From positions 43 through 64,042 of the forward strand of contig MHTR01000001.1 of the NCBI GenBank assembly GCA_001823155.1: a DNA stretch of 64,000 nt, written 5' to 3'. This document shows, one piece after another, positions 34,660-62,817 of the stretch (position 1 is the stretch's first letter; every line of letters starts with the position of its first letter). Made by a program: the position numbers and the translations under genes. The notes beneath the pieces are model-generated. The model was not told the DNA's origin. It saw only the letters and a list, made by a program, of their open reading frames with translations, and made no database searches. Source of the DNA: Candidatus Wildermuthbacteria bacterium RIFCSPHIGHO2_01_FULL_48_25 (GTDB taxonomy: Bacteria; Patescibacteriota; Minisyncoccia; Minisyncoccales; UBA10102).

Positions 34660-36015
34660 GTAAATGCGCTGTCGAATCAACGTCATTTCCTCAACCAATC
34701 CTTCGGAATCTTGGAGCTCTTTTAGGATTTTCGCGCACGCGTAAATGGCTGTGGTGTGGTCTTTCCCGCCGAACTTTTCCCCAATAAAGGGGTAGGAGCT
34801 CTTTAGCTCTTCTCTAAGCAGGTACATGGCTATCTGGCGCGGTTTTACAATCTCCTTCTTTCTCGAGGGAGCCAAAATGTCTTTTTCTCGAATGTCATAA
34901 AACTCAGCCACTACCTGCACAATGCGCCGGGGCGTGGCGAACTTGCTCGGGCTCTGGATGACGCTGCGAAGCAGGTTCTTTGCTTCTGCCACCGTGGGCA
35001 AGGCGTTGTTGAGTTTATAAAAAGCAGCCAAGCGGTTAATGGCCCCTTCCAGTTCCCTGATGTTCCGCTGGATGTTTGAGGCGATGTAGTCGAGCACCGC
35101 GTCTTCCAGGGGAAGGGTTTTTTCCTGCGCCTTGGTTTTAATAATAGCCATTCTCGTCTCAAAGTCGGGGCTTGAGATGTCTGCTATCATTCCTCCTTCA
35201 AAGCGAGAGCGCAGGCGCTCCTCTAAGGCAGCGATGGCTTTTGGGGGTCTATCTGACGAGAACACGATCTGCTTGCCCCGTTCATATAACGTGTTGAAGG
35301 TGTGGAAGAGTTCTTCTTGTGTTTTGTCCTTTCCTGCCAGGAACTGCACATCGTCGAGCACCAACACGTCTAAGTCGCGGTAGGAGGCGCGGAAGTTGTC
35401 CATGGTGTGGTTGCGAATGGCAGACACCACGCCCGTGGTGAAGCGCTCGGAAGATACGTAGCGCACGCGTTTGTCGGCGAAGTCCTTTCCCATTTGGTTT
35501 CCCGCGGCCTGCAAAAGGTGGGTTTTCCCCAAACCCGTGCCGCCGTAAATGAACAAGGGGTTGTAGACAGAGCCCGGGCTCTTGGTCACCGCCTGGGTTG
35601 CCGCGTGCGCGAGCTCATTGAAAGGCCCCACCACGAAGTTGTCAAAGGTGTAGCGGGAGTTGAGGTTCGTGGTCTTGTCTACCGACAGGGGAGCCAGCTC
35701 CAGTTGGGCTTCCTGAGTGGCTGCTGCGGGAGAGGCCGCTTCCCTTTGGGTTTGGGCCTGGCGCTCCACCGTGTAGTTCACCTCCCGAACTTCGTTGTCC
35801 AGGTTCCTCAATATTTTAAAGATGAGCTTGTTGTACTTGTTCTCGAGCCACTCCTTTGAGAAGTTGTTGGGAACAGACACCACAACCTGCCCGCCCTTTT
35901 TGGCGAGAATGTACGTATTTTTAAGCCAGGTGGCGAAATTTGCCTGAGAAATCTGAAACTGCAGCTGCGCCAGGGTTGCTTGCCAGAGTTCTTCCTTAGT
36001 CATAGAGGTGAACAT
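34651..36015 (-). CDS. dnaA: chromosomal replication initiator DnaA
   Basis: Walker A GGTGLGKTHLL, VLVLDDVQFL, and the C-terminal DNA-binding domain (GGKDHTTAIYA). Confidence 0.95.
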   Translation of the reverse strand: MFTSMTKEELWQATLAQLQFQISQANFATWLKNTYILAKKGGQVVVSVPNNFSKEWLENKYNKLIFKILRNLDNEVREVNYTVERQAQTQREAASPAAATQEAQLELAPLSVDKTTNLNSRYTFDNFVVGPFNELAHAATQAVTKSPGSVYNPLFIYGGTGLGKTHLLQAAGNQMGKDFADKRVRYVSSERFTTGVVSAIRNHTMDNFRASYRDLDVLVLDDVQFLAGKDKTQEELFHTFNTLYERGKQIVFSSDRPPKAIAALEERLRSRFEGGMIADISSPDFETRMAIIKTKAQEKTLPLEDAVLDYIASNIQRNIRELEGAINRLAAFYKLNNALPTVAEAKNLLRSVIQSPSKFATPRRIVQVVAEFYDIREKDILAPSRKKEIVKPRQIAMYLLREELKSSYPFIGEKFGGKDHTTAIYACAKILKELQDSEGLVEEMTLIRQRIYSG

Positions 36016-36295: not shown

Positions 36296-36646
36296 ATGCT
36301 CCCCAAGGCCTATCGCCTGTCTCGAGAAACGGATTTCCGGGCAGTGTTAAAAGAACACAAGGGCTTCCGCGAAGACGGCCTGTTCCTGAAGGCAAAGAAG
36401 AAAAGTGGCCATTCCCTCAGATTCGGAATAGTGGTGGGGAAAAACGTGAGCCTAAGGGCAACCAAGCGCAACCGTTTCAGAAGAGTTGTCTCTGAGGCCT
36501 TGCAAAAAAAGCTCTTGGAGATTAAAGAAGGGTATGACGCGGTGCTCATCGCGCTTCCCAAGGCAGAACTTAAGAGCTTGGCAGAGGCAGAGGCAGTTTT
36601 GGAAAAACTGCTCCGCAAAGCTTCTTTATTGAAACACAACCCATGA
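36296..36646 (+). CDS. rnpA: ribonuclease P protein component
   Basis: MLPKAYRLSRETDFRAVLK ... RNRFRRVV (RNR motif). The ORF opens at 36245. Confidence 0.9.
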   Translation: MLPKAYRLSRETDFRAVLKEHKGFREDGLFLKAKKKSGHSLRFGIVVGKNVSLRATKRNRFRRVVSEALQKKLLEIKEGYDAVLIALPKAELKSLAEAEAVLEKLLRKASLLKHNP

Positions 36647-36648
36647 AT

Positions 36649-36773
36649 CCCGTTAGAGATTACACATCTACATTTGAAAGCAGTATCAGTCAAACACAAA
36701 ATGACATGAAAAGTTCGATAGTTTTACCAATGAGTGACGGAAACGTTGCGAAACGTTTCCTATCTCTAACGGG
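36649..36773. mobile_element. MITE-like element, copy 1 (125 bp, 12-bp perfect TIRs, flanked by duplicated ATGAAT)
   Basis: CCCGTTAGAGAT at 36649-36660 and ATCTCTAACGGG at 36762-36773. ATGAAT at 36643-36648 and at 36774-36779. Subterminal hairpin at 36739-36760. Confidence 0.6.
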
Positions 36774-37505
36774 ATGAATATTATTTTCGGATTCTATAAC
36801 ACCCTTTTATACCAACCGCTCTTCAACTCCTTAATCCTGTTGTATGATTTCCTTCCCGGAAGGGACTTTGGGATTTCCATCATCGCGCTTACTGTTATTA
36901 TCCGCGTTGCTTTCTATCCCCTATCTGCCAGGGCTTTTATTGTGCAAAAAGCGTTTTCCGAACTCCAGCCAAAACTAAAAGAACTCCAGGAAAAGTTCAA
37001 GCATGACAAAGACATGTTGGCGCGGCAAACTCTGGAGATGTACAAGAAAAGCGGGGTGAATCCTTTGGCGAGTTTAGGCCCCTTATTGCTCCAGCTTCCC
37101 ATTCTGCTCGCCATTTTCCAGGTGTTCTCAAAGGGGCTGCAAGAGTCGCAACTCCTGAACCTGTATCCTTTTGTGGAGAACCCCGGAATTATTAACCCTA
37201 TGTTCCTGGGGTTGATTAACTTGAGCGAGCAGTCTTTGGTTTTGGCGCTCATGGCAGGGCTCCTCCAGTTTTTGCAAATGCAGGTTGGCCTTACCGCTCC
37301 CAGGGCAGCAGGTTCTAAGAAGCCCGGCATGGCCTTGGTGCAAAAGCACGCCACCCCCATTTTCTTCGCCGCCTTCACGATATATATTTTAACTCGCCTT
37401 CCCTCTGCCATTGGGGTATACTGGGTTGCGACCTCAGTGTTCTCCATTGCTCAGCAGTGGTACCTTGCAAAGAAGTTAAAATTAAAAGGCCAAAGTGAAA
37501 AATAA
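36774..37505 (+). CDS. yidC: membrane protein insertase YidC (short form)
   Basis: Five-TM YidC/Oxa1 core. Located in the rnpA-yidC-jag context. Confidence 0.9.
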   Translation: MNIIFGFYNTLLYQPLFNSLILLYDFLPGRDFGISIIALTVIIRVAFYPLSARAFIVQKAFSELQPKLKELQEKFKHDKDMLARQTLEMYKKSGVNPLASLGPLLLQLPILLAIFQVFSKGLQESQLLNLYPFVENPGIINPMFLGLINLSEQSLVLALMAGLLQFLQMQVGLTAPRAAGSKKPGMALVQKHATPIFFAAFTIYILTRLPSAIGVYWVATSVFSIAQQWYLAKKLKLKGQSEK

Positions 37506-62088: not shown

Positions 62089-62105
62089 CATAAAAGAACA
62101 TGAAT

Positions 62106-62235
62106 CCCGTTAGAGATTGCACCTCATCTACTTACAAATACATGATTCCAAGAGCAAGGTACACAACCAGTCTTATGTCTATATCCGTAACCGACGGAAA
62201 CGCTTTGCGTAAAAGCGTTTCCTATCTCTAACGGG
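62106..62235. mobile_element. MITE-like element, copy 2 (130 bp, same TIRs, flanked by duplicated ATGAAT)
   Basis: CCCGTTAGAGAT at 62106-62117 and ATCTCTAACGGG at 62224-62235. ATGAAT at 62100-62105 and at 62236-62241. Subterminal hairpin at 62196-62222. Confidence 0.6.
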
Positions 62236-62817
62236 ATGAATCTCATTCCCACGGTCATTGAGAAATCGCAATACGGAGAACGCGCGTACGATATTTATTC
62301 AAGGCTTCTTAAAGACCGCATCATTTTTTTGGGAGCTCCCATTAACGACATGGTCGCGAACTCCATCATCGCGCAGCTTTTGTTTCTGGCTTCTCGTGAT
62401 TCTACAAAACCCATTCAGTTCTACGTCAACACCCCCGGAGGTTCGGTGACCGCGGGGTTAGCCATTTACGACACCATGCAGTACATCAAGTGCCCGGTGT
62501 CAACGGTGTGCGTTGGCATGGCAGCCTCCATGGGAGCAGTGCTGCTTGGGGCGGGAACCGCGGGAAAACGCTTCGCGCTTCCCAATTCGCAGATCATGCT
62601 CCACCAGGTTGCGGGAGGCGTGACCGGAGAAGCAGTGGAAATTGAAATAACGGCAAAGCAAATAGTAAAGATACGCGAGCGGTTAAACTCCATTATCTCA
62701 AAGCACACCAAGCAATCTCTCGCGAAAGTGGAAAAAGACACTGACCGCGATTTTTACATGACTCCCGAGGAAGCAAAAGCATACGGCCTCATTGATGAGG
62801 TCATTGACGGGAAATAA
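62236..62817 (+). CDS. clpP: ATP-dependent Clp protease proteolytic subunit
   Basis: [33 protein letters not shown], with the catalytic Ser (MAASMG) and His (MLHQ). Confidence 0.95.

Follow-up and report, generated by a model that had tools for sequence, protein, structure and literature searches.

A very small element family at start codons, seen at clpP of a Wildermuthbacteria genome, and its GIY-YIG nuclease-coding long form

The window analysed here is a 64,000-nt stretch of contig MHTR01000001.1 (positions 43 to 64,042, forward strand, assembly GCA_001823155.1) of Candidatus Wildermuthbacteria bacterium RIFCSPHIGHO2_01_FULL_48_25, a Parcubacteria-type genome assembled from aquifer metagenomes. 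It carries two copies of a very short element with terminal inverted repeats (TIRs), each placed exactly at the start codon of a host gene. Copy 2, the main subject of this report, lies between nusA and clpP, and copy 1 lies between rnpA and yidC. The sequence CCCGTTAGAGAT at 62106-62117 in copy 2 is matched by its exact complement at 62224-62235, and both 12-mers are found again in copy 1 at 36649-36660 and 36762-36773; these two copies are the only perfect 12-mer matches in the 64 kb. Both copies stand between ATGAAT hexamers, which for copy 2 are at 62100-62105 and 62236-62241. From the terminal repeat match and the family-wide flanks, copy 2 is a 132-bp non-autonomous element on the plus strand (62105-62236) running from T plus CCCGTTAGAGAT to ATCTCTAACGGG plus A, with a left 13-nt TIR TCCCGTTAGAGAT (62105-62117) and a right 13-nt TIR ATCTCTAACGGGA (62224-62236). 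The final base of the right TIR, A62236, is the A of the clpP ATG. The duplicated target is TGAA, at 62101-62104 and 62237-62240. The left TGAA with A62100 represents the original clpP start region (ATGAA), and the TG of the right TGAA completes the clpP start codon. The host gene clpP (62236-62817, plus strand) encodes a CLP_protease domain (PF00574). At the start codon of yidC, the TIRs and flanks identify copy 1 as a family member of 127 bp (36648-36774, plus strand), with duplicated TGAA at 36644-36647 and 36775-36778. The left TGAA of copy 1 holds the rnpA stop TGA (36644-36646). Before insertion the rnpA and yidC genes overlapped as ATGA (window 36643-36646). After the 4-bp duplication both signals survive, the left copy serving as rnpA stop and the right copy as yidC start.

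The interiors of the two copies are structured. A subterminal hairpin is found in copy 2 at 62196-62222, with arms GGAAACGCTTT (62196-62206) and AAAGCGTTTCC (62212-62222) around the loop GCGTA (11+5+11), and in copy 1 with arms at 36739-36747 and 36752-36760 (9+4+9). The predicted RNA fold, consisting of the terminal stem and this hairpin, is far stronger than that of shuffled sequences (copy 2, z = -6.4; copy 1, z = -5.3). A search of the element against Rfam covariance models gives nothing at the gathering threshold and only chance-level matches at E <= 10. Each copy also contains an upstream open reading frame (uORF) on the plus strand. In copy 2 it has 43 codons (62100-62231, MNPVRD...SVSYL*), and its stop TAA at 62229-62231 is inside the right TIR, 4 nt upstream of the clpP ATG. 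In copy 1 it has 44 codons (36643-36777); its last residues are ...KRFLSLTG*, and its stop TGA shares bases with the yidC ATG. The TIRs, flanks, hairpins, 43-codon uORF and clpP start described in the initial annotation, made from the sequence alone, are all confirmed on recheck.

The block at clpP is a genuine insertion, as that annotation had proposed. An identical ClpP is encoded on 19 public contigs. One of these (L006), with flanks about 97% identical, reads ...AAGAAC ATGAAT CTCATT... across the nusA-clpP junction, with a single ATGAAT and no element. The 136-bp block at clpP thus varies in presence and absence between strains. Every contig that encodes an identical YidC carries copy 1.

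[quoted passage not shown] The search of GTDB species genomes used both termini 88-118 nt apart with unconstrained flanks and gives at least 120 stretches; class counts and the set of 126 copies refer to copies among the GTDB matches listed. Metagenomes scanned for only the right end, CCTATCTCTAACGGG, give at least 120 stretches with 128 distinct ends. All family members, the two window copies included, have perfect 12/13-nt TIRs. Viral contigs searched for the element give 0 matches, and carriage by phages is unsupported. Copies oriented by the hairpin and then sorted by the outermost base pair fall into two classes. Class A has the outer pair T...A (71 copies) and occurs in Paceibacteria/Parcubacteria, Saccharibacteria, Nomurabacteria, Wolfebacteria and related groups. 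Class B has the outer pair C...G (51 copies) and occurs mostly in Omnitrophota, Planctomycetota, Elusimicrobia and Ratteibacteria. In class A, base 6 of the left hexamer is always T, base 6 on the right side is variable, and base 1 on the right side is always A; in class B the same outer positions are C and G. This constancy means that the outer bases are borne by the element and that the TIRs are 13 nt long. Three class A copies (L018, L039, L093) have GTG at the left flank and ATG at the right, so that the terminal A of the element and the duplicated TG make the downstream ATG. The direct repeat in class A (n = 62) is 4 nt in 37 copies, 3 nt in 8, 5 nt in 3 and 2 nt in 2, and in class B it is 4 nt in 22/51 (TTCA, TTTA, TAAA, TTGA). 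The duplication is TNAA or TGNN and never TTAA, with one base (T or C) between it and CCC. Copy 2 is therefore 132 bp with 13-nt TIRs, and its true duplication is the 4-bp TGAA. Of the native duplicated hexamer ATGAAT first suggested, the duplication stands, but the hexamer itself is TGAA plus the element-borne T and A. At the clpP locus taken alone, the 6+130 and 4+132 parsings are indistinguishable.

Short copies of 114-133 bp hold relic codons only. They belong to a size series of about 277, 185-213, 113-130, 78-95 and 42-63 bp in which the TIRs and the stem are retained in every class. The 42-63-bp micro-derivatives, seen in metagenome stretches L135, L138, L153, L163, L164 and L245, consist of two TIRs and the hairpin, and most are class B. 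Three right ends fall within 190 nt in L245, resembling a short tandem array.

The location of class A copies is quite specific. An ATG adjoins the hairpin-side end in 62/71 copies, and an ORF of at least 60 codons opens there in 58/71, with 4 more in the opposite orientation. The orientation with the hairpin next to the gene outnumbers the opposite one by 62 to 4. An independent metagenome sample of class A behaves similarly, with 72/82 copies abutting ATG and 64/82 opening an ORF. The downstream genes are unrelated housekeeping genes, such as those for SecA, MetRS, Asp/LysRS, PheT, EF-Tu-like GTPases, RRF, L35, TruB, Mur ligase, YidC and ClpP. The strong start-codon association expected from the two window copies is thus found, and the specificity for ATGAAT is not, as ATGGA, ATGAG, ATGCG and GTGGA also serve as targets. 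Unoccupied ATGAA sites in the same loci number 90 at called starts, 348 in intergenic regions and 1523 within ORFs. If any non-disruptive ATGAA were usable, 21% of insertions would be expected at starts, while 21/26 are observed there. Six of the 126 copies adjoin a second CCCGT.../...ACGGG terminus across a shared duplicated target (expected 0.87), and in L009 (5894-6285, Wolfebacteria NORP133) three different elements stand in tandem on one start codon with ATGAAT between them. The site counts and the tandem arrays argue for a real target preference and not survivorship alone. The middle element of the L009 array has other termini, CCCGTAGTAGAAAAT ... TTTTTCACTACGGG, and so represents a sister family at the same site; the third element has both TIR arms changed together (AGAGAC / GTCTCT).

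Class B copies are placed less strictly. A gene start lies within 30 nt on the hairpin side in 24/51 and on the other side in 8/51, an enrichment that is semi-quantitative, as the random-position control is inflated by internal in-frame start codons. Copies in Omnitrophota and Planctomycetota (e.g. L114, L051, L081, L080, L069) are often found between the ATG and a GGAGG Shine-Dalgarno (SD) sequence, or a short way upstream of that sequence; L114 reads GAGGAG-ttta-[element]-ttt-ATG. Looping out by the terminal stem could restore SD-ATG spacing in such copies. Some class B flanks lengthen the terminal stem by G-U pairs on one strand only (e.g. TTTG...TGAA), and this hints at selection on RNA pairing.

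The family has a longer coding form. In the metagenome scan, 34/128 right ends have no left TIR within 260 nt, and for 26 of these 34 the left TIR is found 272-279 bp upstream with the same flanks. This long form of about 277 bp has one ORF of about 86 residues. Its C-terminus is ...RFLSLTG in 21/26 cases, while the other 5 end ...GASYL* at the TAA in the right TIR. The ORF begins with an ATG 14-22 nt in from the left end, or else it shares the frame of the host ATG (5 cases, MNPVRD...). The stop codon is supplied by the TGA or TAA of the duplicated target in 18/21, and it is the TGA of ATGA in 17/21. The last seven codons, RFLSLTG, are made up of the stem arm and the right TIR, and the uORF tail of copy 1 is identical to this C-terminus. 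The ORF matches PF01541 (GIY-YIG) at 56-67 bits (cutoff 22.6; E = 4e-15 to 2e-18), and the nearest solved structure is UPF0213 protein BH0048 (PDB 1ZG2, E = 4.6e-6). Residues Y3, Y5, Y15, G17, R23/R25, H29 and E49 are at least 90% conserved among 18 nuclease sequences (the other 2 rows of the 20-row alignment are the window uORFs). Differences per site are 0.35/0.26/0.59 at the three codon positions, the third being the most variable, and the nuclease is therefore under purifying selection. By these matches the ORF belongs to the GIY-YIG nuclease superfamily, and nuclease activity is predicted. The initial annotation had asked for an autonomous partner with the same termini; a partner with these termini does exist, but it carries a GIY-YIG nuclease gene in place of a recognisable transposase.

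This protein is common in public data, with more than 6100 clusters at 90% identity, of 85-86 or 94-95 residues, all ending RFLSLTG, and the element occurs in thousands of uncultivated bacteria. The 94-95-residue forms start MNPVRD, and public annotation is generic only. Two 86-residue family members (P0061, P0074) are mislabelled 'excinuclease ABC subunit C' and are in fact stand-alone GIY-YIG domains. Among GIY-YIG matches in the examined loci, 32/39 have the canonical TIR at both ends, and more distant GIY-YIG genes lack it. One such gene (L009:2150-2530, minus strand), 38% identical and without CCCG...CGGG TIRs, is bounded by direct copies of the GC-rich palindrome CTCTCCGCCAGCTGGCGGAGAG and a repeated C-terminal coding tail, and may be another kind of GIY-YIG cassette. 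Distant GIY-YIG genes in metagenome stretches L187 and L200 (36-42% identity) adjoin tRNA genes, also without the family TIRs.

The short copies are related to the long form by a simple deletion. In alignments with long forms, copies 1 and 2 match over ~95 nt at the start and ~25 nt at the end and lack the intervening ~150 nt, and the window copies are therefore internally deleted derivatives. The 5' hairpin arm corresponds to the codons of L-R-K-R-F and the 3' arm to the C-terminal K-R-F-L codons of the parent, and both copy 2 arms are identical to the inverted-repeat arms in L142, L160, L175 and L189. In the long form these arms make a 13-bp long-range stem that is wholly coding. Its cells are 96% paired, 5 pairs have changes on both sides, and pairing falls to 50% or less once the register is slid. 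Doubly changed cells number 42, compared to 12.4 +/- 3.7 in shuffles (0/500 shuffles). The short-copy hairpin is fully paired in 79/126 copies, with 62 distinct arms, compared to 6% with arms exchanged between copies; the short-copy interior is unconserved. From this correspondence, the MITE hairpin is best described as the collapsed form of the covarying long-range stem within the nuclease gene. Covariation of the hairpin, predicted from the two window copies, is thus borne out, but not a free-standing MITE structure under selection, as its arms are joined by the ~150-nt deletion. The window uORFs are likewise relics of the parental ORF. KRFLSLTG (copy 1) and SYL* (copy 2) are the two parental endings, the latter also found in long forms L139, L218, L219, L239 and L247, and MNPVRD comes from reading from the host ATG.

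Short copies also multiply as such. Those at different loci of the same genome have interiors up to 97, 86 and 83% identical, while the between-genome maximum is 0.80. Identity within a genome above that of any between-genome pair means that short copies spread as short copies; the two window copies, 0.67 identical, are uninformative in this respect. Decay in place as their only source is ruled out by the near-identical copies at different loci of one genome.

The structure and placement of the element could instead suggest a domesticated 5' RNA (a leader, attenuator or processing site) that controls clpP and yidC in cis and is not a selfish insertion. The strong predicted fold, the covarying stem, the constant orientation with the hairpin beside the gene (62 vs 4) and the fixation of copy 1 in all contigs with the same YidC agree with this, and Correia elements are cut by RNase III at their TIR stem (PMC10969869). 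However, the clpP copy is present or absent between near-identical strains, the interior is unconserved, Rfam gives no match, the target genes are unrelated, and the elements form tandem arrays. The nuclease-coding parent, moreover, already has both stem and orientation, and so do class B copies away from start codons. We consider such a regulatory RNA very unlikely.

The GIY-YIG gene brings to mind a free-standing homing endonuclease gene, whose nuclease would cut empty alleles and whose spread would be by homologous repair without transposition. The protein has the same catalytic domain (PF01541) as GIY-YIG homing enzymes (I-TevI, Seg/Mob of T4) and as Slx1-like and UPF0213 proteins. Like free-standing homing genes, the long form is a selfish gene wedged between host genes; it has a weak, sub-threshold match to a group I intron endonuclease model, and filled and empty alleles coexist in related strains. 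A minimal form with this single domain is known from prokaryotes (PMC1564403). Homing enzymes, however, have a DNA-binding domain and one long site, whereas the long-form protein of 85-86 residues has no DNA-binding extension, and the family occupies dozens of unrelated host genes with only ~5 nt in common. UPF0213 proteins are not described as mobile, whereas here an 86-residue domain is bounded by TIRs with a target duplication, is found at many unrelated sites and has MITE derivatives. The TIRs, the target duplication, the tandem arrays and the gene-less copies that multiply within a genome fit homing poorly as well, and we find this explanation hardly credible.

Translation through the element is open in a minority of copies. 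The left-ATG frame reaches the right end in 12/60 short copies, of which 11 stop at the TIR TAA and 1 at the ATGA overlap. Since the TIR or the target by itself closes the two remaining frames, the frame test was made on interiors only. Open interiors by frame number 12, 8 and 5, compared to 4.1 expected, and 11/28 TAA-frame short copies are open. For the two window copies the chance of an open uORF by shuffling is 0.07 and 0.11. A uORF conserved across the family is ruled out by the 12/60 count. The initial annotation had treated the uORF and termination-reinitiation as a family trait, to be given up if the frame were interrupted in most copies, and we drop it here. The termination-reinitiation layout is a property of the parental nuclease ORF that both window copies happen to retain.

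An SD-like motif with proper spacing is found at 2/60 native starts of element-bearing genes. Such motifs are also rare at ordinary starts (7% in the loci; 8/63 long ORFs in the window), and these organisms thus ordinarily start from an ATG without SD. In every common configuration the host frame stays open through the left TIR. Ribosomes that initiate at the left ATG would run through the 13-bp stem covering the right ATG and open it, which may be the general mechanism of host-gene expression; clpP and yidC would be translated by termination-reinitiation. Cleavage of the terminal stem by RNase III, as in Correia elements (PMC10969869), could take the place of melting by ribosomes. Scans of the element for promoters and terminators find none that is consistent, and -10-like boxes have no positional peak inside it. 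Targeting of leaderless genes was rejected as well. Boxes like -10 lie 5-10 nt upstream at 50% of element-bearing starts, and ordinary starts of these loci have them in 32%, so that the box is more a trait of the lineage than of the target. At several gene starts in the window (e.g. dnaA at 36015, minus strand; 16846; 27976), a TATAAT-like box precedes the ATG by 6-10 nt. [quoted passage not shown]

The family has the features of MITEs: TIRs, a target duplication, small gene-less copies in number, and a longer coding element with the same termini, whose protein has a putative mobilising role. We regard it as quite probable that copy 2 is a MITE, non-autonomous through internal deletion, from a family of very small elements with a GIY-YIG element of about 277 bp as parent. 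The insertion polymorphism, the ends and duplication, the start-codon residency, the long-form origin, the covarying stems, the purifying selection and the spread within genomes are shown by the sequence comparisons and support this reading. The full-length form consists of perfect 13-nt TIRs (Y-CCCGTTAGAGAT) and a single gene for a stand-alone GIY-YIG nuclease of about 86 residues. Insertion duplicates 4 bp, TNAA, which in Patescibacteria is almost always the TGAA or TGNN of a start codon. The element end ...GGGA with the duplicated TG rebuilds the host ATG, and the duplicated TGA doubles as the nuclease stop (GGG-ATGA). Placed between the start signals and the ORF of its host gene, the element would be expressed from the host promoter and start region, and ribosomes would be handed on to the host gene by the stop-start overlap. 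Loss of ~150 nt between the internal inverted-repeat arms gives short copies with a tight subterminal hairpin and relic N- and C-terminal codons. The nuclease would mobilise long and short forms through the TIR stem and the adjacent stem, probably as folded or cruciform DNA; it would cut, and the host's repair systems would finish the reaction. Prokaryotic GIY-YIG domains that stand alone have been grouped with structure-specific nucleases of the Slx1-like kind (PMC1564403). The sole gene found between these ends encodes the 86-residue GIY-YIG domain, and its coding sequence contains the stem and the TIR.

The further proposal, that the ~277-bp long form represents a new class of autonomous transposon, with the 86-residue nuclease as sole protein for both excision and insertion by recognition of the folded terminal and internal stems, is tentative, and we give it somewhat less than an even chance. 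Several points weigh against these readings. We know of no GIY-YIG enzyme that acts as a transposase. TIRs with a fixed 4-bp duplication are a hallmark of DDE enzymes, and characterised GIY-YIG nucleases leave 2-nt 3' overhangs. An unseen DDE transposase acting in trans is possible, given the 8-kb stretches searched per match. The class A repeats are mismatched in 12/62 copies and are 3 or 5 nt long in 11. The left-ATG frame is interrupted in 80% of short copies, and relay translation can therefore not be the general way in which host genes stay expressed. An intact nuclease gene is found neither in the 64-kb window nor in the contig flanks. The steps of movement and of host-gene translation are those we infer from sequence comparison.

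In one reading of these points, the copies are ordinary MITEs of a DDE transposase, e.g. of the IS1380/piggyBac type, mobilised in trans, and the GIY-YIG ORF is only a passenger or addiction gene. IS1380 is the prokaryotic outgroup of piggyBac, and the CCC...GGG termini, the perfect 13-nt TIRs, the asymmetric internal repeat, the 4-bp TTAA-like TNAA duplication and the exact empty site all resemble piggyBac and IS1380 (PMC10813416). Within-genome amplification of short copies agrees with such mobilisation. However, in about 250 loci, searched as 8-kb stretches, no inverted pair of termini 200-5000 bp apart encloses a transposase, and the 277-bp GIY-YIG form is the only larger form. Its ORF is built physically into the right TIR and the stem and is under purifying selection. 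CCC is also one base off the duplication, which is never TTAA. Mobilisation by a DDE transposase thus appears unlikely.

Other small elements share parts of this design. Correia (NEMIS) elements of Neisseria are also ~100-150 bp, have TIRs that form a long mRNA stem, are co-transcribed with adjacent genes and vary in presence between strains. Their stem is an RNase III substrate that alters expression (PMC10969869, PMC2649163). They differ in having 26-bp TIRs, a TA duplication, intergenic sites and no known coding parent, whereas the start-codon family has 13-nt TIRs, a 4-bp TNAA duplication, exact start-codon sites with a rebuilt ATG, an origin from a nuclease gene, and other hosts. Rickettsia palindromic elements are small, palindromic and mobile, and are tolerated in genes because they are compatible with translation (PMC10969869). 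Those elements lie in frame within ORFs and become part of the protein, whereas the present family sits at the first codon, mostly out of frame, and leaves the host protein unchanged. IS200/IS605 elements, PATE derivatives and REP/RAYT systems are similar in their very small size, hairpin cis signals in DNA, short non-autonomous derivatives and short sequence-specific targets, but they use HUH tyrosine transposases and have neither TIRs nor duplication. The smallest of these is ~700 bp, 2.5 times the long form. Searches of open-access text find no account of these termini, of start-codon MITEs or of TIR-bounded GIY-YIG elements; a 2024 review of prokaryotic MITEs never mentions start codons, and a 2025 study lists GIY-YIG proteins among genes exported from Patescibacteria. 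The window copy appears to belong to an undescribed family, with a parent unlike any catalogued insertion sequence.

If the nuclease does mobilise the element, it would represent a new enzymatic class of prokaryotic transposon and lower the minimum size at which a mobile element can be autonomous; it would be the smallest autonomous DNA transposon known and the first with the start codon as its niche. Such an element would borrow the promoter, start region and stop codon of its host and pass the ribosomes on by the ATGA overlap. Its entry into essential genes would be harmless, with the stop/start overlap duplicated and the missing A of the ATG carried by the element. A minimal structure- or sequence-guided nuclease with a short defined target could also be a lead for molecular tools. 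For annotation, the family accounts for gene calls that number in the thousands in Patescibacteria, named "GIY-YIG nuclease family protein" or wrongly "excinuclease ABC subunit C", and for spurious ORFs of 40-45 residues upstream of housekeeping genes. For CPR bacteria, it offers a natural system in which to study translational coupling and initiation without SD, in organisms that are so far out of reach of manipulation.

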